Below, in pieces: positions 3,284 to 54,630 of a DNA stretch of 54,793 nucleotides (position 1 is the stretch's first letter; each line of letters opens with the position of its first letter). The stretch covers positions 1 to 54,793 of the forward strand of contig DNJG01000007.1 of NCBI GenBank assembly GCA_003489165.1. Reading direction: 5' to 3'. The stretch is from Nitrospinota bacterium (GTDB lineage: Bacteria > Nitrospinota > Nitrospinia > UBA9942). A program made the position numbers and the translations under genes. Below the pieces are notes generated by a model, which had not been told where the DNA came from, ran no database searches, and was given only the letters and a program-made list of their open reading frames with translations.

Positions 3284-3369
3284 TGCCGAGGGCCGGAATC
3301 GAACCGGCACGGCAGTTTCCCGCCGAGGGATTTTAAGTCCCTTGCGTCTACCTATTCCGCCACCCCGGC
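3284..3369 (-). tRNA. tRNA-Leu (anticodon UAA), class II with long variable arm
   Basis: Reverse complement reads GCCGGGGTGGCGGAATAGGTAGACGC...GGGACTTAAAATCCC...GGTTCGATTCCGGCCCTCGGCA. It has a 7-bp acceptor stem, anticodon loop CT-TAA-AA and a TPsiC arm GGTTCGATTCC. CCA is not encoded. Confidence 0.9.
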
Positions 3370-3414: not shown

Positions 3415-4281
3415 CTATAACTCTGCCTCATTTAAAAGATATGGCAGATAAGATTCTATGCCAATAGGCATAATATGAATACTCCTGACCATCCCTTTTA
3501 TCTCTCTGATAAATTCAGCCGCAATCCTTATCCCCTCTTCCGTCTGATTCTCTGCCGTCTCTACCCGCTTTGAAATATTCTCAGGAATTTTTTTAGTCAA
3601 TACCTTTTCATTCAAAAAGTTAATCATCTTTATAGACTTAATCGGAGAAATCCCGATAAGAAACTTTGTATTCAATCCCCTCACCTCTTCAAGAAATTTT
3701 TCCAGAGATTCCTTGTCAAAAAACGGCTGTGTCTGAAAAAACTCAGCACCTGCATCAATTTTCTTTTTGATTTTTATCAGCTCAAGTTCAAACGGCTCAA
3801 AAAAAGGATTGGCAACCCCCCCTACAAAAAATTTTGCAGAACTCTCTAACCTCTTGCCCGACATACAGACGCCCGTTTCCATTTCTTTGATTACCTTTAT
3901 AAGCTGAATAGAGTCTAAATCAAAAACAGGCTTCGCATCAGGGTGGTCTCCCAATTTTGGATGGTCGCCTGTCATTACACAGATATTCTCAATCCCGAGC
4001 GCACCTGCCCCAAGGATATCGGATTGAAGGGCAAGCCTGTTTCTGTCCCTTGTACAGGCCTGCATTATAGGATTATGGCCAATCTCTTTTAAAAGATGAC
4101 TGAATGCAAGAGAGCACATCCTCATAATGCCCCTCTGGTTATCAGTTACATTGATTCCATCAACCCTTCCTAAAATCTTTTTTGCAATATCAAGGCTTGA
4201 TGCAGTATTGACACCCTTTGGAGGCGGAATTTCAGTTGTAACTACAAAATCTTTTTGAACAAATATTTCTCTAAGCCCCAT
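3415..4281 (-). CDS. metF: Methylenetetrahydrofolate reductase, MetF (acetogen / Wood-Ljungdahl-associated type)
   Basis: 288 aa, with TTEIPPPKG, NVTDNQ and TGDHPKLGDHP motifs characteristic of MTHFR. Start is translationally coupled to the upstream metV. Confidence 0.85.
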   Translation of the reverse strand: MGLREIFVQKDFVVTTEIPPPKGVNTASSLDIAKKILGRVDGINVTDNQRGIMRMCSLAFSHLLKEIGHNPIMQACTRDRNRLALQSDILGAGALGIENICVMTGDHPKLGDHPDAKPVFDLDSIQLIKVIKEMETGVCMSGKRLESSAKFFVGGVANPFFEPFELELIKIKKKIDAGAEFFQTQPFFDKESLEKFLEEVRGLNTKFLIGISPIKSIKMINFLNEKVLTKKIPENISKRVETAENQTEEGIRIAAEFIREIKGMVRSIHIMPIGIESYLPYLLNEAEL

Positions 4282-7902: not shown

Positions 7903-8811
7903 ATGATTTCTTATAATCTAACCCATTTAAAACATCTTGAGGCGGAGTCAATACACATCATTCGTGAGGTGGCGGCCGAATTCAACAACCCTGTGATGCT
8001 ATATTCCATAGGAAAGGACTCTTCGGTTCTTGTCCATTTATCCCGTAAGGCATTTTATCCCGCCCCAATCCCATTTCCTCTCCTCCATGTGGATACCACA
8101 TGGAAGTTTAAAGACATGATAACCTTCAGGGACAGCTTCTGCAAGGAGCATAACCTTAAATTAATCGTGCATATAAATAAGGAGGGCATAGAAAAGAACA
8201 TCAACCCATTTGACCACGGCTCAAATATCTATACCAACATTATGAAGACAGAGTCCCTGCGTCAGGCTCTGGATAACGGGGGATATGACGCCGCATTCGG
8301 CGGGGCAAGGCGGGACGAGGAAAAATCAAGGGCAAAGGAGAGAATATATTCGTTCAGGGACGAAAGACATCAGTGGGACCCAAAGAACCAGCGTCCAGAA
8401 CTCTGGAACATATACAATGGAAAGGTAAAAAAGTGTGAATCTATCCGTGTATTTCCACTGTCAAACTGGACTGAACTTGATGTCTGGCAGTATATCTATC
8501 ATGAGAATATAAAAATCGTCCCCCTCTATTTTGCCGGAGAGAGGCCTGTAGTAAAAAGGAATGGAAATCTGATAATGGTGGATGACGAGCGTTTTCGCTT
8601 TCTTCCCGGAGAAAAATCCGAGATGAAAATGGTCCGCTTCCGAACACTCGGTTGCTATCCGCTCTCAGGGGCGATAGAATCAACTGCGACGACCCTGCCC
8701 GAGATTATACAAGAGATGCTCCTTACGAGGCAATCCGAAAGACAGGGACGGGTCATAGACCATGACGAGGCAGCATCTATGGAGAAGAAAAAGCGGGAAG
8801 GTTATTTTTAG
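7903..8811 (+). CDS. cysD: Sulfate adenylyltransferase subunit 2
   Basis: 302 aa with a PAPS-reductase/ATP-sulfurylase fold signature ([31 protein letters not shown]). SD GAGG lies upstream. Confidence 0.93.
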
Positions 8812-8816
8812 ATAGT

Positions 8817-9006
8817 AAAGGAACAAAAACCTGATTAACCACAGAGGTCACAGAGAAAGAAAAAAAATAAAGACACTGAAAGACACAGATAAATTATGAT
8901 TAACACAGAAATAAAGAACTATAAAAATCATAAATAATCAGTGTAAATCTGTGTCAAAAAATTTAGTTTTTTCCCTCTGTGTCTCCGTGTCTCTGTGGCA
9001 AATCTT
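8817..9006. repeat. CCACAGAG-type palindromic (MITE-like) repeat, copy A, between cysD and cysN
   Basis: Terminal inverted arrays CCACAGAGGTCACAGAG ... CTCTGTGTCTCCGTGTCTCTGTGG flank an AT-rich core. The core (~150 nt) differs from copy B (14710-14889) at 3 positions by hand alignment. Confidence 0.9.
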
Positions 9007-9013
9007 ATAATTT

Positions 9014-10942
9014 ATGAACGAACAGGAGCTTATACAAAAAGATATATTGGCATATTTGAAGCGGCAGGAAAACAAAGGGCTTCTCCGCTTTCTTACCTGC
9101 GGCTCTGTGGATGACGGCAAAAGCACCCTCATCGGCAGGCTTTTGCACGATAGTATGCTCATTTATGAAGACCAGCTCGCTTCTATAAAGAAAGAAAGCG
9201 AGAAAAGCGGCTCGGCAGGCGATGAGTTGGACCTATCTCTCCTCGTTGACGGACTTGCCGCAGAGAGAGAGCAGGGAATAACAATAGATGTGGCATATCG
9301 CTATTTCTCTACCGAAAGGCGCAAATTTATTATTGCAGATACGCCGGGGCATGAGCAGTATACACGCAATATGGCTACGGGGGCTTCTAATAGCGATTTA
9401 GCCGTTATTCTGGTTGACGCCCGTTACGGCATCCTGCCGCAAACAAAGAGGCACAGCTTTATATGCTCCCTCCTTGGCATAAAACATATAGTAGTAGCCG
9501 TAAATAAGATGGATCTCGTTGATTACAGTGAGGATGTATTTGAGAAGATATGCGATGACTATAGGTCGTTCTCCGTAAGGCTTGAAATAGACGACATCCA
9601 TTTCATCCCTATCTCTGCACTGAAGGGCGATAATGTAGTTGAGGCAAGCAATAAAATGACATGGTTTAAATCAGGTCCGCTTCTCAACTATCTTGAGACT
9701 GTTCATATTGCATCAGACCGCAATCTTATAGACTTACGGCTTCCAATCCAGTATGTCGTCAGACCCGACTTAAACTTCAGGGGCTTTGCAGGGACGATGG
9801 CATCGGGCATACTCCGTCCTGGAGATGAGGTGGTCGTTCTCCCCGGCGGACAGAAAAGCCATGTAAAAAAAATAGTCACATTTGACGGCAATTTAGAGGA
9901 GGCATTCCCTCCGCTATCAGTAACCCTCACACTTGAAGATGAGATAGATGTAAGCCGCGGCGATATCATCGCCCGTCCGGACAACCAGCCAAGGGTTGGA
10001 AGAGAACTGGAGGCAATGATTGTCTGGATGGCGGAGCAGCCAATGACACCTATGAACAGATACCTCTTTAAGCATACCTCTAACATGATTAGCGGAACTG
10101 TATCTATGCTTAGATACAGGATTAATGTAGATACCCTTGAAAGGGAAGACTCAAAGGAACTGAAAATGAACGAAGTGGGGCGGTGCAGGGTATCGCTGGA
10201 GCGGTCAATCCCCTTTGACCCTTATAAAAGAAACCGCACTACAGGTGCATTCATAATTATAGACAGACTCACCTTTAACACCGTAGGTGCAGGTATGATA
10301 ATTGACCGCGAGGCAGAAGGCGAGGATGGAAAGGATTTCTGGGGTGTAGAAGTATCGGATGAATTTTTAAGACATCAAAAGAGTCGTGTATCCATAAAAG
10401 AAAGGATAGAACTTCACAAGCACGAGCCTTTGACTATACTTCTTACAGGTCTTCCATTCACTGGAAAGACAACTATAGCCTATGCCCTTGAAAGACGGCT
10501 CTTTGACAATAGACTAACAGTTACTGTGCTTGACGGGTCAGATATGAGGAGCGGCATCAGCAAGGATTTGGGTTTTACTGCAAAGGAAAGGTCGGAAAAC
10601 ATGCGCCGTGCAGCCGAAATTGCACTTATGTTCAATAATTCAGGGTTAATCTGCATCTGCTCATTTGTTGCTCCAGATGCCGGGGTGCGTGAAAAAGCGC
10701 GAAAATTGATTGGCGGTGACCGTTTCTTAGAGATATATCTCACTGCCTCGGAAGAGACCCGCCGCAAACGCGACGAACAGGGTGCATATAATAAGGCAGA
10801 CAAAGGGGAGATAAATGAATTCCCGGGAATATCGGCGGCTTATGATGTGCCTGAGTCACCAGACCTTATTCTTGAAACCGATAAGCTAAATGTTGAGGAG
10901 TGTGTGGACAGGATAATACGTCTGCTGGAAAAGAGGAGATAA
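9014..10942 (+). CDS. cysNC: Bifunctional sulfate adenylyltransferase subunit 1 (GTPase) / adenylylsulfate kinase
   Basis: 642 aa. The N-terminal translational-GTPase domain has GSVDDGKST, DTPGH and NKMD. The C-terminal APS-kinase domain has a P-loop LTGLPFTGKTT. Confidence 0.92.
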   Translation: MNEQELIQKDILAYLKRQENKGLLRFLTCGSVDDGKSTLIGRLLHDSMLIYEDQLASIKKESEKSGSAGDELDLSLLVDGLAAEREQGITIDVAYRYFSTERRKFIIADTPGHEQYTRNMATGASNSDLAVILVDARYGILPQTKRHSFICSLLGIKHIVVAVNKMDLVDYSEDVFEKICDDYRSFSVRLEIDDIHFIPISALKGDNVVEASNKMTWFKSGPLLNYLETVHIASDRNLIDLRLPIQYVVRPDLNFRGFAGTMASGILRPGDEVVVLPGGQKSHVKKIVTFDGNLEEAFPPLSVTLTLEDEIDVSRGDIIARPDNQPRVGRELEAMIVWMAEQPMTPMNRYLFKHTSNMISGTVSMLRYRINVDTLEREDSKELKMNEVGRCRVSLERSIPFDPYKRNRTTGAFIIIDRLTFNTVGAGMIIDREAEGEDGKDFWGVEVSDEFLRHQKSRVSIKERIELHKHEPLTILLTGLPFTGKTTIAYALERRLFDNRLTVTVLDGSDMRSGISKDLGFTAKERSENMRRAAEIALMFNNSGLICICSFVAPDAGVREKARKLIGGDRFLEIYLTASEETRRKRDEQGAYNKADKGEINEFPGISAAYDVPESPDLILETDKLNVEECVDRIIRLLEKRR

Positions 10943-14454: not shown

Positions 14455-14470
14455 AGTAATTTTAAAATTT

Positions 14471-15040
14471 GCTGGAGCAGATTATAAGCCGGATTCTGTC
14501 CACCACTTAAAGTGGGAGATGACCATTTATCTGCCCTTTATGTCGCCATAAAGGTTTAGCGGCTTACCCGAAGACATCGGACGGGCAGTCCTATCGCCTT
14601 CCTATTTAGCCTTGCTCCGGGTGGGGTTTTCCATGCCCATGATGTCACCACCATGGCGGTGAGCTCTTACCTCGCCTTTTCACCCTTACCCCGCACACCA
14701 TGAAACATGAAAGAACAAAAACATGATTAACCACAGAGGTCACAGAGAAAGAAAAAAAATAAAGACACTGAAAGACACAGATAAATTATGATTAACACAG
14801 AAATAAAGAACCATAAAAACCATAAATAATCAGTGTAAATCTGTGTCAAAAAATTTAGTTTTTCTTCTGTATTCTCTGTGGCAAATTTTCATGCTTCATT
14901 ATATGTGCGGGGCGGTATATTTTCTGTGGCACTATCCGTAAGGTCGCCCCTCCTTCCTGTTAGGAAGCACCCTGCCCTCTGGAGTCCGGACTTTCCTCCC
15001 CCACACTTATGTGTGGGAGCGGCCATCCATCTGCTCCAGC
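14471..15040 (-). ncRNA. rnpB: RNase P RNA, bacterial type A, with a ~180-nt repeat insertion in P12
   Basis: P1 GCUGGAGCAG pairs with CUGCUCCAGC. GGGAGGAAAGUCCGGACUCC, AAGGGUGAAAAGGCGAGGUAAGAGCUCACC, CCCACCCGGAGCAAGGCUAAAUAGG and ACAGAAUCCGGCUUAUAA all occur in canonical order on the minus strand. Confidence 0.9.
14710..14889. repeat. CCACAGAG-type palindromic repeat, copy B, inserted in the rnpB P12 loop
   Basis: Near-identical to copy A, but the right arm has one fewer 8-mer unit. Flanked by the P12 arms CCCCGCACA / UGUGCGGGG. Confidence 0.9.
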
Positions 15041-15054
15041 AAATAAATAATACA

Positions 15055-15144
15055 GACTAAAAGTCTAAGAGTCTAAGAGAAAATGATAAAAATCAAATGA
15101 TTTAAACTTTTAGACTTTTAGACCCTTAGTCTCTTAGACTCTTA
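15055..15144. repeat. Inverted tandem-octamer hairpin (AGTCTAAG x2 ... CTTAGACT-like x4) between the Zn-ribbon gene and rnpB
   Basis: AAGTCTAAGAGTCTAAGAG ... CTTTTAGACTTTTAGACCCTTAGTCTCTTAGACTCTTA. Probable stem-loop or terminator on the minus-strand transcript. Confidence 0.8.
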
Positions 15145-15849
15145 CTATCCTGTCCAGTAAAGCACCCTCTGGCAGTGGGGACATTTAATAAGAACTTCAT
15201 TTTTTCTGATTTCACTTGCCAATTGTGGAGGAAGGCTTAAAAAACAACCCTGACATATCCCGTCTGAAAATCTTGCCACTGCTATCCCTTCTCTGTTCTT
15301 ACTCACCTTGAGGTAATTCTGAAGAACTTTATTGTCCAGTGAACTGCTTATGGATTCCCTCTGCTGTTTTTTTTCTTCTATAGTTTTTTTAAATCCCTCT
15401 GTATCTTTTTCTTTTTCTCCTTTAACCTCCTGAAATCTTTTCTCTTCTTCCTTGAGTAGTTTTTCCTTTTCTTTTAGTGTCTTTTGTTCTTCATCTATTA
15501 GCTCCATCAAGTTTAAATCTTCGTCTTCTAATTTTTTTATCTTCTCCTTCGCACTATCAACCTCTTTAAGAAGGGCTGAATATTCTTCATTTGTTTTAAC
15601 CTGAGAGAGTTTGACCTTTGTCTTAGAGATATGGTCATTTTCAATCTCAACCCCCCTCTCCTTCTCACGTCTGTCTTTATTATGCAGGTCTAACTTTTGT
15701 TTAATCTGGACTATCTCTTCTTTTATCTGCTGGCAGATATGATATAGCTGGTCTATCTCCTGAGGTATTTTTTTATAATTATCTTCTAATTTCCCGAGTT
15801 CAATATCAATATCTTGAAGATTTATCAGCAACTCCAATTGCCTATTCAC
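15145..15849 (-). CDS. C4-type zinc-ribbon / coiled-coil protein (COG1579-like)
   Basis: 234 aa: a long Glu/Lys coiled coil followed by CQGC...CPHCQRVLYW. Confidence 0.7.
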   Translation of the reverse strand: MNRQLELLINLQDIDIELGKLEDNYKKIPQEIDQLYHICQQIKEEIVQIKQKLDLHNKDRREKERGVEIENDHISKTKVKLSQVKTNEEYSALLKEVDSAKEKIKKLEDEDLNLMELIDEEQKTLKEKEKLLKEEEKRFQEVKGEKEKDTEGFKKTIEEKKQQRESISSSLDNKVLQNYLKVSKNREGIAVARFSDGICQGCFLSLPPQLASEIRKNEVLIKCPHCQRVLYWTG

Positions 15850-15874: not shown

Positions 15875-16393
15875 TTAAAATCTATTCAGTATGTCCTCTA
15901 TAAGTTTTTTGTTCAATTCACCCTTAAATTTTTCCTTTATCCTCCCTTCACGGTCAATGAAAAATGTAACCGGCAGCCCAATCACTCCATAATCCATTGA
16001 TACCTTCAGATCAGAGTCTATAAGTATAGTAAATTCTACCCCTTTTTCTGATATAAATTTTTTGACCCTGTCATAACTTTCATTGTAATTTATACCTATA
16101 ACCTCAATACCCTCACCCTTTCTATTATTATAAACCTCTTGTAAGAGAGGCATCTCATTGACACAGGGCGGACACCATGTTGCCCAAAAATTGAGCATAA
16201 CCTTTTTACCTTTGTAATAATCAAGGTTTATAGCCTTTTTGCTTAAATCGGTCAAGGCAAAGTTAGGTGCATAGCTACCAATATTTACATTAGTGTTCTC
16301 ATTATCCCTTTTACATCCTGATATTATTATTGCCAAAAGAAAAATAATGAAGAAAGCAATTTGATTATGCCTGCCGAATTTATCTTTATTCAT
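15875..16393 (-). CDS. TlpA/ResA-family periplasmic thiol:disulfide oxidoreductase (lipoprotein)
   Basis: FWATWCPPCVNEMP thioredoxin motif. Signal peptide with lipobox IISGC. Confidence 0.85.
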   Translation of the reverse strand: MNKDKFGRHNQIAFFIIFLLAIIISGCKRDNENTNVNIGSYAPNFALTDLSKKAINLDYYKGKKVMLNFWATWCPPCVNEMPLLQEVYNNRKGEGIEVIGINYNESYDRVKKFISEKGVEFTILIDSDLKVSMDYGVIGLPVTFFIDREGRIKEKFKGELNKKLIEDILNRF

Positions 16394-19353
16394 CTATATC
16401 CTGCCTTTGAAATATTCTTTATCTTCTCTATCTCGGAATTTATTAAATTCCTCTCCTGTTCTGTAATTTTTAATCCAAGTCCTCTGCTGTAATAGTCCAT
16501 AGCCTTCATTAGGTCAATCTCATAATATGTATATATGCTCCCCAAATTCAGATAAGGACTAAAATATTTTCCATCAAGTGTTATAGCATATTCAAATTCA
16601 TTTACAGCCCTTTTTATATCTTTTTTAGACAGGAATAAAAGTCCTCTGAGATTATAAAGCTGTGGCGTAAACTCATTGTCTCTGTCTAACCCTATACATT
16701 CATTTATAAGCTCAAATCCTTTATCTATCTCTCCTGTAGAAAGAATCCTGTATATACTGTTAATGTTTAAATTTATAAGCTCATATCTTGCATCTGTATT
16801 TTCACTATTAATTTCAGCCGCTTTTCTAAAACTATATACTGCATCCTCAAGGCTGTTATCGTTTACACCAACCTGCCCTTTTAAAAAATAAGTGTAAGAA
16901 TTAAAATATTTTTCTATTTCTTCACCTTTGTTTGAGTCCAAATCTCGGACTAATCCTTTTACAGATTTCCGATATTTCAGCATATTCAGCAGATTCTTCC
17001 CCTTTATAGATGTCCCAACATGATGAATCCTCGGTGCTGTAAATTCTACATAGGGGTTATTATCAGTAACAATAGGAACTCCATCAATAAATTTATGTAA
17101 ATCTTCTTCATCCATCATAAATGTAGAGAGGAGTTGAAATGGATTGAATATTCCTATCTCTTTCAGACTTTCCTGTATCTTTTTATTATTAAGCCTTTCC
17201 CTGAAATTCTCAAAATCTATTGCCAATTTTTTATCAGAACCTATCATAATTGCATCCCATTTTGTAAACCACATTGTGGAATGCGGAAATACAGACACAA
17301 AAGTTGAAACCAGCATCTTAAAATCATCTTCTGAAAGATGATGAAGGGGTATCCAATGAGATACCATTCCGCCCTCTTTAAGACGGGATTTACAGAGCAT
17401 ATAATACTCCCTGCTGTAGAGATTCACAATACCTGCATTTGACGGCGGGGGGGGTTCTGATGTGATAAGGTCAAATTTTTTATCTGTTGTCAGCAGAAAA
17501 TTTCTCCCATCCTCAATAATCATTTTAAATCTGCTGTTATTAAGTATGTCCCTGTTTCCATCAGAGAAATATCTGCCGCCGTTGAATACCTCTCTTGATA
17601 TATCTACTGCATATATCTCACTGACATTGTGGTCACCGACAGCCCCTGCCGTTGAACCAGTTCCAAAACATATAATCAGTGCATCCTTTGGGTCAGGATG
17701 GAATAAGAGGGGGAGATGCGCCTGAAGCCTCTCAAGTTGTAATGCACCCCTGAATTCACCTGCAATAGGGTCTCCATTTATCCAGAGCCTCTTTACAGGT
17801 TTTCTAAAGGGGGTAAGGTCTGTCTCCTGAGATGAGACAAGGACAGTCCCTGCTATCCCTTCTTTATAATAAAGTATTTCATTCCCTTTATCTATCTTCC
17901 CGATGCTGATTAATTTTGGAATATCTCCCGTTCTTAATATAAAAATAATAATGATAACACTGATAGTAATAGATAATATGGAAATAAAATATCGGGCAAT
18001 GCTTCTTTTGCTTATATAAATCAGGATAATACCAAATAGAAGGGGAATAGCTCCTGTCCATATGATAGATTTCTGTATTCCTATGAGGGGAAGAAGTATA
18101 AAGCCTGCAGAAAAAGAACCTATTATTGCACCTATAGTATTAATCAGATATACCTTTCCTATACCTTTCCCGATATCTTTCATCTCAAATTTCAGGGTTT
18201 GAGCTACTGCAGGAAAACTTGCTCCCATTAATAGTGTAGGAATAATCATTATGAAAAATGCCATTAAAAAGGTTGCAAACATTCTCCCTTGCCAATGTCC
18301 GATACCAACAAATTGTGATGCCCATGAAATGAAGTTATTGAGCTGAGAGGCAATGAAATTGTGATTTGCAAACAGAAGGAGAGATAAAAATCCCATCAGA
18401 CCAATCAAAATTTGAAAGACTGCAAAAATGGTTACCAAGTTCTCACTTTTAAAAAATTTAGGTCTTAAATTCCGAAATCTAAAATCCGAAATCCAAAATC
18501 CAAATATAAGGCTCCCACCTGCTATACCGAGGAGAAATGTAAATAGGATTATTGAAAACGCATATATGGTATTATCCAGAATCAGTATAAGAACCCTTGT
18601 CCATAACACCTCATAGGAGAGTGCCGCCATTCCTGAGAAACCAAAGGCAAGAAGGATTAAGGTCGATAGTTGGGAGTTGGGAGTTGGGAGTTTTGAATCT
18701 TGAGTTTTTAGTTCTGACTTCTGACTTCTGACTTCTGACTTCTGACTTATTATATACGCCCCTCCCCCTGCAATTAAATTCAAGAGGGCAGCTGAATAAA
18801 GCGATTGTGTAACACCAATAACCTCTATCAGGTAAAAACCTGTAATAATACATCCTGCAACTGCCCCGAAGGTATTTAAGGAATATATAACTCCTGTATC
18901 AACCCCTATTTTGTTCTCACTCTTTATAAGAAATCTTGATATAACAGGAAGCGTCCCCCCCATCATAGTTGTTGGAAATATCAGGATTAAAGAAGATATT
19001 AGAAATCTTTCTGCAGAGAGAAGTAAAAAGCTTCCCCCTGTTAATACATGAAGTTTTACATACAGCCATTCTGTAAGTGAAAAAATATTTGGCAATAAGA
19101 TAGCGTATAAACCTATTAGAATCTCAAGAAGTGCATATACCTTCAGAGGATTCCCCCTCTTATCTATGAGTCTGCCAAAGATATATCCCCCTATACCAAG
19201 CCCTGCCATAAATACGGTAAGTACAGTGCTTATTGCAAATGAGGATACACCAAATACGAGTGAAAGGAGGCGGGTCCAGACGATTTCATAGATAAGCCCT
19301 GAGGCGCCTGATAGGAAAAATATGAGGAGGATTAAAGGTCTTGCATAGTTCAT
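16390..19353 (-). CDS. Fused polytopic membrane / spermidine-synthase-like (SAM-MTase fold) / TPR protein
   Basis: 987 aa. The N-terminus (FFLSGASGLIYEIVWTRLLS) is typical of fused MFS-like spermidine synthase proteins. A central aminopropyltransferase-like block (ICFGTGSTAG, DLITSEPPPP) is followed by C-terminal TPR-like repeats. Confidence 0.7.
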   Translation of the reverse strand: MNYARPLILLIFFLSGASGLIYEIVWTRLLSLVFGVSSFAISTVLTVFMAGLGIGGYIFGRLIDKRGNPLKVYALLEILIGLYAILLPNIFSLTEWLYVKLHVLTGGSFLLLSAERFLISSLILIFPTTMMGGTLPVISRFLIKSENKIGVDTGVIYSLNTFGAVAGCIITGFYLIEVIGVTQSLYSAALLNLIAGGGAYIISQKSEVRSQKSELKTQDSKLPTPNSQLSTLILLAFGFSGMAALSYEVLWTRVLILILDNTIYAFSIILFTFLLGIAGGSLIFGFWISDFRFRNLRPKFFKSENLVTIFAVFQILIGLMGFLSLLLFANHNFIASQLNNFISWASQFVGIGHWQGRMFATFLMAFFIMIIPTLLMGASFPAVAQTLKFEMKDIGKGIGKVYLINTIGAIIGSFSAGFILLPLIGIQKSIIWTGAIPLLFGIILIYISKRSIARYFISILSITISVIIIIFILRTGDIPKLISIGKIDKGNEILYYKEGIAGTVLVSSQETDLTPFRKPVKRLWINGDPIAGEFRGALQLERLQAHLPLLFHPDPKDALIICFGTGSTAGAVGDHNVSEIYAVDISREVFNGGRYFSDGNRDILNNSRFKMIIEDGRNFLLTTDKKFDLITSEPPPPSNAGIVNLYSREYYMLCKSRLKEGGMVSHWIPLHHLSEDDFKMLVSTFVSVFPHSTMWFTKWDAIMIGSDKKLAIDFENFRERLNNKKIQESLKEIGIFNPFQLLSTFMMDEEDLHKFIDGVPIVTDNNPYVEFTAPRIHHVGTSIKGKNLLNMLKYRKSVKGLVRDLDSNKGEEIEKYFNSYTYFLKGQVGVNDNSLEDAVYSFRKAAEINSENTDARYELINLNINSIYRILSTGEIDKGFELINECIGLDRDNEFTPQLYNLRGLLFLSKKDIKRAVNEFEYAITLDGKYFSPYLNLGSIYTYYEIDLMKAMDYYSRGLGLKITEQERNLINSEIEKIKNISKAGYR
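18668..18748. repeat. In-frame heptamer arrays (TTGGGAG x3 and CTTCTGA x5) inside the 987-aa gene
   Basis: AGTTGGGAGTTGGGAGTTGGGAG at 18668-18690 and TTCTGAC x5 at 18712-18748. Together they encode ...QKSEVRSQKSELKTQDSKLPTPNSQLST... Confidence 0.9.
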
Positions 19354-19425: not shown

Positions 19426-20551
19426 ATTTCTTTAATATCTCCTCCGGCGGGCTCACCTTAACTTTCAAATCTGACTTTTTTGATATGCTTCCGATTTTAG
19501 ACAAATTCAGCTTGCCTATCTTATTTCCTGACATCATTGTAAACCATATGTTATTTTTTAAATCTGCCGTTATTGCAAGCGGCTGACTATCCTTCATCGG
19601 TATATCGTATTCTTTAAAAATTTCTGAATCAGGGTCAAATCTTACAATCTTGTTTTCATATCTCAAGGCAAGCCAAATATTATTCTCTTTATCTATAGCC
19701 ATACGCTGCGCCCCCTTTTTCCCCGGAATTGGAAAGTCCTTGAATTCACCCGTGGCGGGATTAAGTCTTACCAGCTTTTTGTCCTTCAGCCTGCAAAACC
19801 ATACATTCCCTTTTGAATCAATTGCAGTGCCTATAGGCATACTCAATGGCTGTTTTAGTTCATACTCCTTGAATTTTCCATTTTCATGATTTATCATTCC
19901 AATTTTGTTTCCACCCTTTTGAACAAACCACATATTTCCTTTTGAATCACTGGCGAGACCTGATGACTGGCTCATGGGGGTAGGGATATCATATTCCTTA
20001 AACCTCTCCTTAATCCCCTCTTTTTGAGAAGAGGGTGGGGTAAACTTAGTTATTTTATTTCTGTTCCACTCTACAAACCATACATTGCCCTTTGAATCTG
20101 CCGATATAGAGGCAGGATTACTCTGTGGAACCCGAAGGTCAAACTCCTCAAACTCCAATGTCCGTGTATTAAACTTTCCAAGCTGATTGCCTTCCTGCTC
20201 CGTGAACCACAGGTTATTATCTTTATCTATTGTCATATCCGTAGATTCACTTTTAGTTGTAGGTATCTCAAACTCCTCAAAGATATTTTTTGAAGGGTCC
20301 AACTTTCCAATCTTATTTGCACTATATTCCAGGACCCATACGATACCAGAACGGTCTACAGCAATATCAGTCGGAGAACTTAAAGGGGTAAGAATGGGAA
20401 ATTCTTCAAAAGGGGTATCTTCGGAGGCAAAGGCAAGAAAAACAGAAGACAGAAGACAGAAGACAGAGAACAGAGAACAGAGAACAGAGGACAGAAGAAA
20501 AACTCTAACTTCTGACTTCTGACTTCTGACTTCTGACTTCTTATTTCTCAT
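19424..20551 (-). CDS. Secreted Vgb (streptogramin-lyase-like)/NHL-type beta-propeller protein
   Basis: Repeated blades of the form D..GN.WF.E...NKIGK......F.EY.IP. The likely start is the ATG at 20551, which overlaps the upstream stop (ATGA) and gives MRNKKSEVRSQKSEVR + hydrophobic core + AFA|SE. The tracked start at 20629 lies inside the upstream gene. Confidence 0.65.
   Translation of the reverse strand: MRNKKSEVRSQKSEVRVFLLSSVLCSLFSVFCLLSSVFLAFASEDTPFEEFPILTPLSSPTDIAVDRSGIVWVLEYSANKIGKLDPSKNIFEEFEIPTTKSESTDMTIDKDNNLWFTEQEGNQLGKFNTRTLEFEEFDLRVPQSNPASISADSKGNVWFVEWNRNKITKFTPPSSQKEGIKERFKEYDIPTPMSQSSGLASDSKGNMWFVQKGGNKIGMINHENGKFKEYELKQPLSMPIGTAIDSKGNVWFCRLKDKKLVRLNPATGEFKDFPIPGKKGAQRMAIDKENNIWLALRYENKIVRFDPDSEIFKEYDIPMKDSQPLAITADLKNNIWFTMMSGNKIGKLNLSKIGSISKKSDLKVKVSPPEEILKK
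20443..20540. repeat. Heptamer arrays (CAGAAGA x3, CAGAGAA x3, ... then CTTCTGA x4-5) that encode the signal peptide of the 19424-20551 gene
   Basis: Read directly: CAGAAGACAGAAGACAGAAGACAGAGAACAGAGAACAGAGAACAGAGGACAGAAGA ... CTTCTGACTTCTGACTTCTGACTTCTGACTTC. Confidence 0.9.
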
Positions 20552-21855: not shown

Positions 21856-21880
21856 AGAAAAGTAATAGGATTTGAAAATT

Positions 21881-21935
21881 CAAGGGTTCGAGGGTTCCAG
21901 TAAAGCACTTGACCCCTTGACCCCTTATACCCTTA
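21881..21935. repeat. Inverted tandem-octamer hairpin (CAAGGGTT/CGAGGGTT ... GACCCCTT x2, ATACCCTT)
   Basis: Read directly; imperfectly complementary arms between the subunit IV/heme c gene and the propeller gene. Confidence 0.7.
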
Positions 21936-22654: not shown

Positions 22655-22775
22655 GAAAAAATCTAATTAAACCACTGAGACACTGAGGCACAGAGAAAAA
22701 CTTACAACCTGCAACTGTTGTCCGTTGTTTGTTGTCGGTTCTTCATCTCCGTGTCTCCGTGCCTCTGTGGTAATT
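22655..22775. repeat. CACTGAG/CACAGAG-type palindromic repeat, copy D, between the two cytochrome b halves
   Basis: AACCACTGAGACACTGAGGCACAGAG ... CTCCGTGTCTCCGTGCCTCTGTGG. Confidence 0.8.
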
Positions 22776-22802
22776 TTTTTCTTTTTTAATTTTGAATTCT
22801 CT

Positions 22803-28573: not shown

Positions 28574-29527
28574 TTACTTCTGGTTTCTTGCTTCTGGCTT
28601 CTGACCTCTATTTAAATACCCTTTCAACTCTTCAATCCCCTCTACTATCCTCGGTCCAAGCCTGTAAAGTGCATCACCCGTATAATAAACCCTCCCATTC
28701 TTTACAGCCTTAAGCATGCCAAGTTTTTCTAAAAGCCCTTTTGAGAGTTCCTTTGTATCAGCACCCATACTCTTTCCTATTAAAATGGCATTAGGTGAAC
28801 GATGTATAACCTCCTCAATTGAATATTTAGGATACCCTCCCACGACATCAGATGCAATATTCTCCCAGCCAAGCAATTGTAGGGCATCATCAATTGTTGT
28901 GCCATGTCCTGCTACAAGCAGAGGCTCGGGCCAGACAATAAAGAGAGCCTTTCCTTTAACTTCTGGCTTCTGACTTCCAGCTTCTGACTTCTGAAGTTTG
29001 TTTTCTATCTCTTCTGCAAGTTTATTCGCCCTTTCTCCTGCACCGAGGGTAATACCTAACTCCCTTATTCCTTCTGACAGTTCAGAAAGCCGCCTTGCCC
29101 TGAATACATAGGTCTGTATTCCAAGTTGTTTCAACCTCTCTTCAAACCCCTTTGGATTTCCATCTGTAGTCATTACAACAATATCTGGCTTCATAGAGAC
29201 AACGGCCTCAAGGGATGGATTAGACATACCTCCGATTTTAGGCTTCTCTTTTGCTCGAGGCGGGTAATCGCAGAAATTGGTTACCGCTAAAATCTTATCT
29301 TCAAGCTCAATGGCATAGAGAATCTCAGTGATGTTAGGTGCAAGTGATACAATTCTCTCAATGGGTGAGGAGAAAGCTGTGCTTGATAAAAATATAAATA
29401 TAATCAACCACAGAGAACCCAAAGAAAGAAAATAAAAAAATAAATTATATATATTGTCTAAAGAAAACCTGCTTCCTATTTGATTTAATATCTTTATTTT
29501 TCTCTGTGTCCTCTGTGGTAAATACAT
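28574..29527 (-). CDS. btuF: Periplasmic cobalamin/siderophore-binding protein (BtuF-like); start codon uncertain
   Basis: RIVSLAPNITEILYAIELEDKILAVTNFCDYP is typical of class III SBPs. The 5' ~120 nt run through repeat copy G. The C-terminal tail and an internal linker are encoded by CTTCTGR heptamers. Confidence 0.75.
   Translation of the reverse strand: MYLPQRTQRKIKILNQIGSRFSLDNIYNLFFYFLSLGSLWLIIFIFLSSTAFSSPIERIVSLAPNITEILYAIELEDKILAVTNFCDYPPRAKEKPKIGGMSNPSLEAVVSMKPDIVVMTTDGNPKGFEERLKQLGIQTYVFRARRLSELSEGIRELGITLGAGERANKLAEEIENKLQKSEAGSQKPEVKGKALFIVWPEPLLVAGHGTTIDDALQLLGWENIASDVVGGYPKYSIEEVIHRSPNAILIGKSMGADTKELSKGLLEKLGMLKAVKNGRVYYTGDALYRLGPRIVEGIEELKGYLNRGQKPEARNQK
29402..29524. repeat. 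CCACAGAG-type palindromic repeat, copy G, lying within the annotated 5' end of btuF
   Basis: AATCAACCACAGAGAACCC ... TTTCTCTGTGTCCTCTGTGGTAAAT. Confidence 0.8.
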
Positions 29528-31519: not shown

Positions 31520-31624
31520 TTTTCCCTCCCTCGAGAAAATTTAGTTTGTTTTGGCAGAGTCTCTTGTTCGTGTTTTTAACCCATAACTCCGAACTCCAAA
31601 CTCTGAACTTGTTTTGGCTTGGAT

Positions 31625-31775
31625 AGGTCTTCCGGCTTAAGGGCTACCTACTTACCTGCCTTCCCATCATGGCATTACCCATGACAGTGGCATGTAGGTT
31701 TTCGTTCCCTTTTACGGCTGCGGGGCAGCGGAGGATTTTCACCTCTCTTCCCTGGCATCCAGCCACCAATAATTG
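31625..31775 (-). promoter_or_regulatory. Cobalamin (B12) riboswitch
   Basis: Minus strand reads ...GGTGGCTGGATGCCAGGGAAGAGAGGTGAAAATCCTCCGCTGCCCCGCAGCCGTAAAAGGGAACG...ATGCCACTGTCATGGG...GGGAAGGCAGG. This covers the conserved GGTGAAAATCC core and the B12 box GCCACTG. Confidence 0.85.
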
Positions 31776-31919
31776 TCTTTACTTCTTACTGTTTAAGTTA
31801 TCACCTCCTTCCACTAACACCGATTCACTGTTTTTATATTTAAACAGCTTTTTAATTTTTTTGTCAAGTTTTTTATCTCTTTTCCATTATGGTTTTTAAT
31901 GCCTGACCCCATAAATTGA

Positions 31920-41190: not shown

Positions 41191-41266
41191 TGGTGGAGCT
41201 GAGGGGGATCGAACCCCTGACCTACAGACTGCCAGCCTGTCGCTCTCCCAGCTGAGCTACAGCCCC
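41191..41266 (-). tRNA. tRNA-Ala (anticodon GGC), CCA encoded
   Basis: Reverse complement reads GGGGCTGTAGCTCAGCTGGGAGAGCGACAGGCTGGCAGTCTGTAGGTCAGGGGTTCGATCCCCCTCAGCTCCACCA. The G3:U70 identity pair is present. Confidence 0.92.
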
Positions 41267-43261: not shown

Positions 43262-43290
43262 TTATGTTTCATAAAGGAAAAAATCCATGA

Positions 43291-43341
43291 ACCAGAATTC
43301 AGAATCCAGAATAAATTCTGACTCCTGACTCCTGAATTCTG
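43291..43341. repeat. Inverted tandem-heptamer hairpin (CAGAATY x3 ... CTCCTGA x2, ATTCTG)
   Basis: ACCAGAATTCAGAATCCAGAATAAATTCTGACTCCTGACTCCTGAATTCTG, between ymdB and metG. Confidence 0.8.
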
Positions 43342-44168: not shown

Positions 44169-44229
44169 GATGAGCTAATGAGTTCAGAAGTTAATGAGTT
44201 AACTCATTAACTCATAAACCCATTAACTC
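44169..44229. repeat. Inverted repeat hairpin built from TAATGAGTT / AACTCATTA units
   Basis: GCTAATGAGTTCAGAAGTTAATGAGTTAACTCATTAACTCATAAACCCATTAACTC. Confidence 0.8.
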
Positions 44230-46377: not shown

Positions 46378-46495
46378 AACACGAATAACACGAATGGGAC
46401 AAATCACACGAATAACTACTAATTACAGAAAATATTTTTACTTTTGATTTTAGTTTTTATTCGTGACATTCGTATATTCGTGAAATTCGTGTTCT
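46378..46495. repeat. Inverted tandem arrays of CACGAAT / ATTCGTG units
   Basis: AACACGAATAACACGAATGGGACAAATCACACGAATAAC ... TTATTCGTGACATTCGTATATTCGTGAAATTCGTGTTC. Confidence 0.85.
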
Positions 46496-46867: not shown

Positions 46868-47058
46868 CAAAATTAATCCCCCATCCTATGCCGTATGAAA
46901 AAGAAATTTTGAACCTGGCAAACCAGGTGGGTTCCGCATGGGCTACTTTAGGTTTCCCGCCGAGGCAGGCATACACACCATAGCCACAAATTGGTTCCCA
47001 TTCTAAGCGTAATGGATCAAAAATTCTTCTCCACCTCGTGCATGATAGGGGATTAAAC
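46868..47058 (-). ncRNA. ssrS: Candidate 6S RNA
   Basis: Sits between zapA and 5-FCL, the conserved position of ssrS in E. coli. The closing stem pairs UUAAUCCCCUAUCAUGC with GCAUAGGAUGGGGGAUUAA. The 3'-bubble hairpin CACCUGGUUUGCCAGGUUCAAAA resembles E. coli CACCUUGAACCAAGGGUUCAAGG. Length is ~190 nt and the region is locally GC-richer. Confidence 0.55.
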
Positions 47059-47604: not shown

Positions 47605-47691
47605 AGGCAAAAGAATACACCTACTCCAAATTTGTGTCAAGAGAATTGCCTTTTCCAATATAATTGGTTATTATTTTACTGTAAAATGTAT

Positions 47692-47724
47692 AAATTTGCC
47701 ACAAAGACACAGAGAAACAAAAAC
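47692..47724. repeat. Solo arm of the CCACAGAG-type repeat
   Basis: AAATTTGCCACAAAGACACAGAGAAACAAAAAC is the reverse complement of the right-arm consensus ...CTCTGTG..CTGTGGCAAAT. Confidence 0.6.
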
Positions 47725-47741
47725 AAGGGGATTTTTAAATA

Positions 47742-54453: not shown

Positions 54454-54630
54454 GAACAAAAACCTGATTAAACCACTGAGACACTGAGGCACAGAGAGAA
54501 ACAAAAACAAAAAAGATTAAGGAGAAAGGGAGAAGATGGAGAGATAGAGAAAAGGGAAAATAAAATATTTTTTCTACTCCCCATTTCTCTTTATTGTTTT
54601 CCTCTGTGTCTCCGTGCCTGTGCAAATTTT
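54454..54630. repeat. CACTGAG/CACAGAG-type palindromic repeat, copy C
   Basis: It shares GAACAAAAACCTGATTAA at the left end with copy A. The right end (CCTCTGTGTCTCCGTGCCTGTGCAAATTTT) resembles the right arm of copies A and B. The internal sequence differs. Confidence 0.8.

Follow-up and report, generated by a model that had tools for sequence, protein, structure and literature searches.

An RNase P RNA gene of a Nitrospinota bacterium with a copy of a dispersed palindromic repeat at the tip of helix P12

Background

An RNase P RNA gene (rnpB) of 570 nt, in a clade where the same gene can be as short as 367 nt, raises the questions what the additional sequence is, how it arrived there and whether the gene that carries it still supplies a working ribozyme. 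We studied these questions for the minus-strand rnpB gene on a contig of 54,793 nt from a Nitrospinota bacterium (DNJG01000007.1, GenBank assembly GCA_003489165.1; the whole stretch is called the window hereafter), for which an earlier inspection of the letters alone (the sequence-only reading) had proposed a type-A RNase P RNA with a palindromic repeat inside helix P12. The answer that we prefer, and to which we assign a probability of roughly three in four, is that this is the working RNase P RNA gene of the organism and that the tip of its P12 has expanded to a composite hairpin of 224 nt that carries near-neutral cargo. The core of the gene is intact and contiguous; the insert is found at the P12 apex, is strongly self-complementary, is a recent copy of a dispersed repeat and is absent from the orthologous sites of the relatives.

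An intact RNase P RNA gene with one insertion

The whole window was scanned with the Rfam covariance models. Model RF00010 (RNaseP_bact_a; gathering score 100 bits) matched at 15038..14469 on the minus strand with 312.8 bits (E = 1.3e-101), from model position 1 to 367 and without truncation. The model joined both flanks of the insert as one class-A RNase P RNA, and all the extra sequence (~205 nt) is accommodated as a single insertion between model positions 136 and 137, i.e. in the loop of P12. The sequence-only reading had therefore recognised the gene, its continuity and the site of the extra sequence correctly; only its span of 14471-15040 was off, by 2 nt at the ends. The parts of the gene, with its putative promoter and the related element elsewhere in the window, are:

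14469..15038, minus strand: rnpB, class-A RNase P RNA gene, 570 nt (RF00010 covariance match)
15047..15075, minus strand: promoter-like site TAGACT-17-TATTAT (consensus match only)
14914..15038, minus strand: rnpB 5' core (5' strands of P1-P11, and J11/12), 56.8% GC (model alignment)
14904..14912, minus strand: 5' strand of the P12 basal stem, RNA CCCCGCACA (placed by the model on its P12 5' strand)
14887..14899, minus strand: 5' strand of the P12 extension, AUGAAGCAUGAAA, two degenerate CATGAAA heptamers (inverted-repeat pair)
14710..14889, minus strand: inserted palindromic 'CACAGAG' element with termini GATTAACCACAGAGGTCACAGAG... / ...TCTCTGTGGCAAAT, 28% GC (homology to 8818-9006; hairpin fold)
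14700..14712, minus strand: 3' strand of the P12 extension, UUUCAUGUUUCAU, two TTTCATG heptamers (inverted-repeat pair)
14689..14697, minus strand: 3' strand of the P12 basal stem, RNA UGUGCGGGG (model alignment and complementarity)
14469..14688, minus strand: rnpB 3' core (J12/13, P13, P14, P15-P18, P19, and the 3' strands of P4, P2 and P1), 51% GC
8818..9006, plus strand: sister copy, between cysD and cysN, in the opposite orientation relative to transcription (homology)

The conserved P4/core strands (GAGGAAAGUCCGG ... ACAGAAUCCGGCUUA) and the P1/P2 closure are present in the RF00010 alignment, and the score compares with 325.5 bits for an insert-free relative (locus L044), which agrees with the earlier claim that the catalytic core was left intact. 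The 5' core is 93.5% identical to that of the same relative and 98% to that of another (L003). The basal arms of P12 are complementary at 9/9 positions, and both these arms and the extension that follows them were found as the sequence-only reading had given them. The 5' end of rnpB lies 9 nt downstream of the last position of the -10 box in the promoter-like site. In several public assemblies a spurious ORF (open reading frame) of 45 aa is called over the 5' part of the gene (e.g. L001:3824-3961, corresponding to window ~15026-14889).

Could this copy nevertheless be dead, with a second, intact rnpB elsewhere in the genome? The insert is large, and the search for a second copy covered 55 kb of the genome, within which RF00010 matched once. 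We consider such a pseudogene highly improbable, as the core shows no decay (the scores given above, and few non-canonical pairs), rnpB is at the position that it occupies in conserved synteny throughout the clade, and the 570 nt are without a single difference in a distinct strain whose flanking sequence differs at 24 of 5705 positions (see below). Moreover, insert-bearing alleles of the relatives show compensatory changes in core helices, e.g. CCAUGG...UCAUGG vs CUCCGG...UCGGAG in L007.

The inserted element and its sister copy

The composite hairpin can be read as three layers: a putatively native basal stem of 9 bp, a 13-bp stem of two CATGAAA/TTTCATG heptamers that appears STRR-like (short tandemly repeated repetitive sequences; see below), and, at the apex, a copy of ~177 nt of a dispersed, non-coding 'CACAGAG' palindromic repeat. 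The size of the element is about 177-186 nt, its ends (14710..14889) overlapping the heptamer stems by 3 nt, and it contains no ORF. At 28-32% the GC content of the insert lies below the 51-57% of the rnpB core. Over 14 nt the two ends of the element, GATTAACCACAGAG / CTCTGTGGCAAATC, are 86% complementary, and the complete P12 hairpin folds at -74.9 kcal/mol vs -38.7 +/- 4.1 kcal/mol for shuffled sequences (z = -8.8; 0/200 shuffles as good), so that the description as a long imperfect palindrome was apt. A second folding of the composite hairpin gave -80.2 kcal/mol. No ribozyme or intron model of Rfam overlaps the insert at the gathering threshold.

The same element occurs between cysD and cysN. 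Positions 14710-14863 and 8818-8971 differ at 4 of 154 nt (3 internal, 1 at the edge; 97% identity), so the near-identity that had been noticed by eye is real, with four mismatches instead of the three counted over ~150 nt. Over their full lengths (14710-14889 vs 8818-9006) BLAST aligns the two copies at 91.5% identity with a gap of 9 nt in one arm; besides substitutions, they are set apart by this deletion and a few changes in the same arm. The 23-mer terminal motif was found 3 times, vs 0.00 matches expected by chance. The cysD-cysN copy is identical in all 11 contigs that encode an identical CysD, none of which has an empty site, and an Rfam scan of 8700-9100 by E-value returned chance matches only (E > 7).

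That a repeat-induced mis-join placed the cysD-cysN type of repeat inside rnpB is conceivable in principle, given that the other copy lies only 5.9 kb away and that metagenome assemblers can mis-join at repeats. Contigs from other assemblies (numbered as L loci) were therefore compared, chosen by the protein encoded next to rnpB, a CT398-like Zn-ribbon protein (15145-15849, minus strand):

L001, ENA ERZ28564412: 2 mismatches in 6.7 kb, rnpB identical
L002, ENA ERZ27254739: 100% identical
L036, JGI 3300025013: 24 mismatches in 5.7 kb (5705 positions), none in rnpB, a distinct strain
L005, ERZ909578: partial, first 318 nt of rnpB

The identical 570-nt gene, with zero differences, is thus present in three further assemblies and in part in a fourth, with the same junctions, from different assemblers and samples. 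The rnpB copy is distinct from the cysD-cysN copy in the ways just described, and both flanks of the insert continue the P12 helix perfectly. With identical junctions in at least three other assemblies the chance of an assembly artefact is close to nil. The related GTDB genomes, and those that encode close homologues of the neighbour protein, are metagenome-assembled genomes (MAGs) of Nitrospinae/Nitrospinota from groundwater, with ~39% GC, in agreement with the earlier remark that the host is not cyanobacterial.

P12 in the relatives

Throughout the clade rnpB lies in synteny, downstream of the CT398-like Zn-ribbon gene. P12 was isolated from each rnpB by cutting at the conserved anchors ACAGAAAAYATACC and GTAAGGGTGAAA, and each relative is given with the percent identity of its Zn-ribbon protein to that of the window (neighbour identity). 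The P12 alleles that were recovered are:

L044 (neighbour 89%): minimal P12, CAGGCGAC-GAAA-GUCGCCUG (8-bp/GAAA); rnpB 367 nt
L046 (neighbour 66%): minimal P12; rnpB partial (3'-truncated contig)
L008, L009, L011 (neighbour 63-71%): palindromic tandem heptamers; rnpB 434-468 nt
L003, L006, L007 (neighbour 92-100%): ORF of 85 aa of the GIY-YIG type (type A); rnpB 641-642 nt
L038, L047 (neighbour 83% and 69%): GIY-YIG ORF of 97 aa (type B); rnpB 666 nt (L038)
L039-L043 (neighbour 76%): remnant of ORF type A and a different palindromic element; rnpB 528-589 nt

Across these variants the flanking rnpB core is 89-98% identical to that of the window. The comparison with close relatives that the sequence-only reading had proposed shows that the element is absent from the orthologous P12 (in L044, L006, L007, L038, L008 and others), and its place is taken by other cargo or by a minimal P12. 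The heptamer units differ between loci (GGACTGG-type in L008, GCAATGA in L009, GTGAAGA in L011), and in L009 a further palindromic array of the GCAATGA unit precedes rnpB at a short distance. ORF type A fills exactly the loop of a perfect 20-bp stem, CCCCUACACCUUUCAAGUCU/AGACUUGAAAGGUGUGGGGG, and ORF type B is bracketed by CCCCGCACACAACUCGCAU/AUGCGAGUUGUGUGCGGG, with a basal stem that matches that of the window. In L039-L043, P12 retains CCCCTACATCTTTCAAGTCTGAATTATGTTC, the stem of type A with the two initial codons of the ORF (…GAATTATGTTC), and continues into a palindromic element made of GACGCAGAT units.

The tip of P12 is a hot spot in this Nitrospinota clade, where cargo has repeatedly been gained, swapped and lost. 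Because P12 is hypervariable on a conserved ribozyme core, it constitutes a tolerated landing site for selfish DNA; and because the copy in the window is 97% identical to its sister copy and absent in the relatives, it probably arrived recently, by mobilisation or by recombination between repeats. The clade amounts to a natural tolerance experiment, in which the specificity domain of RNase P accepts a hairpin of more than 200 nt or a whole gene at the P12 tip, and it offers a natural allele series, from 367 to about 670 nt, for studies of folding and activity.

The tips of P3, P15/16 and P19 vary less than P12. They gain and lose smaller insertions, also between contigs whose neighbour protein is identical. 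In the relatives such small hairpins, which affect the P9/P10 region as well, were seen at L039:3648-3705 and 3786-3838, L047:1512-1564, L038 (in the P19 region) and L008:2558-2584, and several of them share the palindrome GCGAAGAGACTCTTCGC. Stems of the type CCCCGCAC... recur around P3, P12 and P19 inserts across phyla and were considered as a mobile module; as they fit the generic C-rich/G-rich consensus, this candidate was dropped.

A few contigs need separate mention. In a relative at 63% (L010) there is no rnpB downstream of the Zn-ribbon gene and synteny is broken. Locus L003 is 100% identical to the window over the 1 kb up to rnpB (L003:1-1136 = window 16049-14914), and beyond the insert (L003:1432-3905 vs window 14689-12308) the identity lies at 92-98%, or at 83-98% in most 200-nt windows (100% in one), with the drop starting ~40 nt before P12. 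Either the contig is a metagenomic chimera, or recombination had its breakpoint at the P12 cassette. As a possible chimera L003 was set aside as the closest strain with a different P12; its ORF allele is independently confirmed by L006 and L007. In L047 the length of the gene is inflated to 788 nt by a scaffold gap (a run of N) that comes with a duplication of part of rnpB.

These alleles also bear on whether the element took the place of an earlier GIY-YIG cassette in P12, by recombination or deletion, a course of events that would fit either fate of the RNA discussed below. The type-B ORF alleles L038 and L047 have the basal stem of the window, CCCCGCACA/UGUGCGGGG, and L039-L043 show exactly such a swap, with CCCCTACATCTTTCAAGTCTGAATTATGTTC kept and a GACGCAGAT-type palindromic element after it. 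In addition, the window sequence AUAAUGAAGCAUGAAAA (14883-14899) matches 14/17 nt of AUUAUGAAGCAUAUAGA, which encodes YYEAY in the type-B ORF of L038. This match is short and possibly due to chance, however, the basal stem likewise agrees with the C-rich/G-rich consensus that RF00010 gives for P12 in general, and tblastn found no other ORF remnant in the window. We consider a replacement possible but doubtful.

Retention or excision of the extended hairpin

In the reading that we prefer, the element would pair with itself during transcription and so lengthen P12 away from the catalytic core, much as in the coaxial extension that the sequence-only reading had proposed, the ribozyme would still fold and work in spite of the insert, and the insert itself would be neutral or near-neutral cargo. 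P12 is peripheral, and in class-A RNAs only its basal part is known to contact L13. In Mycoplasma fermentans P12 is absent (PMC8172020).

Several observations weigh against this reading. On the rnpB strand a U-rich tract, AUGUUUUUGUUCUUUC, lies 3' of the 3' arm of the element and could cause some premature termination. No target-site duplication was seen, i.e. no direct repeat at the boundaries (fuzzy by +/- 3 nt) of either of the two near-identical copies, and no cognate transposase was found in the 770 kb of metagenome loci that were covered. Finally, when the cysD-cysN copy is swapped into P12 the hairpin folds at -91.3 kcal/mol, vs -80.2 kcal/mol with rnpB's own copy. As the rnpB copy is less stable than the cysD-cysN copy in its place, there is no sign of selection on the P12 extension, and an adaptive tuning of the rnpB copy was rejected on these figures.

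The RNA may, alternatively, not stay in one piece: RNase III would cut the insert out of the P12 duplex and leave a working RNase P RNA of two pieces, which the remaining structure would keep together. Intervening sequences (IVSs) of rRNA are excised in this manner in helices 25 and 45 of 23S rRNA, and RNase P RNAs that are rebuilt from fragments or circularly permuted in P12 stay active. At the level of sequence the insert displays the full set of IVS hallmarks, in that it replaces the tip of a peripheral helix, is AT-rich (28-32% GC in a host RNA of 51-57%), is sporadic among close relatives and is bracketed by an extended duplex (9 + 13 bp here; perfect stems of 19-20 bp in the ORF alleles, CCCCUACACCUUUCAAGUCU/AGACUUGAAAGGUGUGGGGG and CCCCGCACACAACUCGCAU/AUGCGAGUUGUGUGCGGG). 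The duplex in the window, however, is broken by a UAUA/GG internal loop and many bulges and does not make an obvious RNase III substrate, and the STRR-containing P12 of cyanobacteria is, as far as is known, retained in the mature RNA. On balance excision seems unlikely, and an uncut RNA with an elongated P12 is what we favour.

GIY-YIG genes nested in rnpB

The P12 loops of five loci contain an intact GIY-YIG ORF, in each case bracketed by a perfect stem of 19-20 bp:

L003:1163-1417
L006:4940-5194
L007:4959-5213
L038:3488-3778
L047:1669-1959

The ORFs match the Pfam GIY-YIG domain (PF01541) with 69.7 and 54.5 bits, at a cut-off of 22.6, and the nearest solved structures are those of the UPF0213 proteins BH0048 and EF2693 (closest PDB entry 1zg2). 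The ratio of nonsynonymous to synonymous substitution rates (dN/dS) is 0.17 for L038 vs L047, at a dS of 0.86. Of the type-A pairs, three in all, two have ratios of 0.2-0.3, and L006 vs L007 has one of 0.82 that derives from four differences only. By these ratios the ORFs are under purifying selection. The type-B ORF runs through the 3' strand of the stem into the rnpB core and ends in …CVRGKGEKAR*.

Some 500 proteins with lengths of 81-128 aa came up in a search for homologues, and Patescibacteria and WOR-3 contributed many of these. For all three homologues whose context was inspected the ORF again resides inside rnpB, in this case in the P3 loop:

L181/L182, a third metagenome lineage (JGI): rnpB L181:1452-2098, ORF 1501-1758, stem CCCCGCACATAAAGCTC/GAGCTTTATGTGCGGGG, P1/P2 pairings verified by eye
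L178-L180, WOR-3: rnpB L178:1455-2096, ORF 1501-1755, P3 loop
L183-L190, Patescibacteria: rnpB L184:~1420-2322, ORF 1501-1761; rnpB of ~900 nt that also has a 192-nt insert in P19

For several other family members the rnpB context is betrayed by over-extended gene calls: C-termini that read …CVRGKGEKAR translate GUGCGGGGUAAGGGUGAAAAGGCGAGGUAA, the rnpB sequence after P12, those that read …GRKVR translate GGGAGGAAAGUCCGG, the rnpB sequence after P3, and N-terminal extensions of the type …EGKCHRKYTAPHT or …DPAHNSH translate upstream rnpB sequence. The Rfam scan left the rnpB of L184 uncalled and aligned those of L178 and L181 only downstream of the ORF. Covariance models thus misalign or miss ORF-bearing rnpB genes, so that rnpB may score as 'missing' in completeness checks of MAGs. 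Our literature search found no description of GIY-YIG genes nested in rnpB, and these genes, in hairpins of rnpB in several phyla, may represent an undescribed niche of homing nucleases outside introns and rRNA.

Tentatively, and with the odds somewhat against it, the helix tips of rnpB (P12, P3, P19) can be viewed together as places, shared across phyla, in which selfish DNA finds a safe harbour or to which it homes. A lineage of minimal GIY-YIG proteins (UPF0213-type, ~85 aa) may be specialised on rnpB hairpin loops, in P12 in Nitrospinota and in P3 in WOR-3, Patescibacteria and the third lineage. Its ORF may always be bracketed by a perfect stem of 17-20 bp, and recombination driven by the nuclease may spread or maintain it. 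The palindromic insert of the window may then be a decayed or replaced nuclease site. The transcripts of such rnpB genes may be bifunctional (ribozyme and mRNA) or give naturally fragmented ribozymes; the nested ORFs at any rate pose the question how a single transcript can serve both a ribozyme gene and a protein gene.

The 'CACAGAG' repeat family

At least three further intergenic elements in the window share the termini of the insert only, with unrelated interiors, and there is one solo end:

22657..22793, no strand assigned: family member, termini only (AATTAAACCACTGAGACACTGAGGCACAGAGA ... TCTCCGTGTCTCCGTGCCTCTGTGGTAAT), different interior
29397..29525, no strand assigned: family member with shared termini (AATCAACCACAGAGAAC ... 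TCTCTGTGTCCTCTGTGGTAAAT)
54458..54625, no strand assigned: family member with shared termini, left end 93% identical to 22657-22701
47684..47728, no strand assigned: solo family end (ATTTGCCACAAAGACACAGAGAAAC)

The termini of the family can be written as (A)ATTAA(A)CCAC[A/T]GAG-[xCAC[A/T]GAG]n … [CTC[C/T]GTGx]n-CTCTGTGG[T/C]AAAT. An exact metagenome-wide search with the 21-mer TTAACCACAGAGGTCACAGAG (matches numbered L048-L167) found it in at least 120 contigs, from soils, sediments, lakes and permafrost, with a contig GC content of 0.30-0.69. The CACAGAG element is not private to the source genome, its terminal motif being present in very many unrelated metagenome contigs. Among the matches listed, the common anatomy is that of a terminal motif, tandem xxCACAGAG 9-mers, a variable centre and the mirror image of these parts, over ~55 to 270 nt. 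The matches are mainly intergenic (7 of 76 are inside an ORF, by a crude ORF call) and are depleted between divergent genes (34 in co-directional, 14 in convergent and 5 in divergent contexts). No long autonomous version was found among 125 matches in 770 kb of metagenome loci, where pairs of termini more than 700 bp apart gave two loose candidates only. The family was not found in Rfam, and a literature search for the motif strings retrieved no paper with the terminal motif. The family thus appears to be extremely widespread in environmental bacteria and so far uncharacterised.

The sequence-only reading had called the insert a complete MITE-like element (miniature inverted-repeat transposable element). 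The anatomy fits this term, with terminal inverted repeats, a small size, many copies and a presence/absence polymorphism; as no target-site duplication and no cognate transposase were found (see above), the likeness is only partial and membership of the MITE class is not established.

Comparison with known systems

The closest precedent is found in heterocyst-forming cyanobacteria, for which Vioque is said to have described in 1997 (NAR 25:3471) STRR heptamers in P12 of the RNase P RNA that are tolerated there. The sequence-only reading had pointed to this precedent, which is real and closer than it had supposed: the stem that flanks the element consists of two TTTCATG heptamers, and L008, L009 and L011 have full palindromic arrays. 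In both cases short repeats that occur genome-wide lengthen the P12 hairpin of the same RNA while the core is untouched. The window retains two TTTCATG/CATGAAA units per P12 arm; no CATGAAA arrays were found elsewhere in the window, where other 7-8-mer arrays are abundant, and the P12 heptamer of L009 (GCAATGA) is also dispersed outside P12. The systems differ in that the host is a Nitrospinota bacterium instead of a heterocyst-forming cyanobacterium, that the bulk of the insert is a discrete dispersed palindrome of ~177 nt with defined termini and a 97% identical copy elsewhere, and that sister alleles have a protein-coding gene at the same site. What is new with respect to STRR is therefore the phylum, the discrete dispersed palindrome (~180 nt) and the series of alternative cargo that includes a protein gene. 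The invasion of P12 by repeats is not a cyanobacterial curiosity, as it reaches another phylum and a new class of cargo.

For rRNA, Brown and colleagues reportedly found in 2015 ORF-bearing insertions in the genes of the candidate phyla radiation (CPR). IVSs in bacterial 23S/16S rRNA genes (PMC11270868) share with the P12 inserts that an essential structured RNA has an AT-rich extended stem-loop in place of one of its peripheral helix tips, that their presence is sporadic among close strains, and that some versions contain ORFs or homing-endonuclease genes. The host RNA differs, being RNase P RNA, and this likeness is one of sequence-level features; the nuclease is a minimal UPF0213-type GIY-YIG protein and not a LAGLIDADG one, and there is no intron core.

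With the MITE- and REP-like repeats (Correia/NEMIS, ERIC, REP/BIME and the Rickettsia palindromic elements) the element shares that it is small, non-coding and multi-copy and has terminal inverted repeats. The CACAGAG family is, like REP/BIME, mostly intergenic and depleted between divergent genes. Rickettsia palindromic elements also reside inside functional genes, including an RNA gene. Unlike these repeats, the CACAGAG element has arms made of tandem 8-9-mers (xxCACAGAG) and a terminal motif that is conserved over contigs of 30-69% GC, which is unusually broad, and neither a target-site duplication nor a partner transposase or RAYT was found for it.

For the RNase P RNAs of the CPR, Lui et al. 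(2021, PMC8172020) report peripheral helices that are greatly extended or missing, and an under-calling of such rnpB genes by covariance models. The under-calling has its counterpart here in L184, L178 and L181; in that paper neither repeats nor ORFs are mentioned as making up the extensions. A literature search on rnpB in connection with MITEs, intervening sequences or P12 insertions brought up two relevant papers, Lui et al. 2021 and, in the form of a citation, Vioque 1997.

Other features of the window

The Rfam scan also retrieved a 6S RNA (46874-47054, minus strand, 103.5 bits), a cobalamin riboswitch (31605-31777, minus strand, 83 bits) and two tRNAs (41194-41266 and 3284-3369, both minus strand). 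Inverted arrays of 7-9-mers occupy the intergenic spacers 15057-15144, 18466-18509, 20439-20548, 21879-21926, 28577-28994, 43282-43335, 44170-44229 and 46378-46491, e.g. ATGAGTTA x4 followed by TTAACTCA x4, an STRR-like genome habit outside the cyanobacteria. Immediately upstream of rnpB the units of the arrays are octamers, CTAAGAGT and TTAGACTC. Heptamer arrays are also found inside the minus-strand ORF 16390-19353, where GTCAGAA x5 and then CTCCCAA x3 (coding strand, 18668-18748) encode …QKSEVRSQKSELKTQDSKLPTPNSQL… within a 987-aa spermidine-synthase-like/TPR protein, in frame and tolerated.

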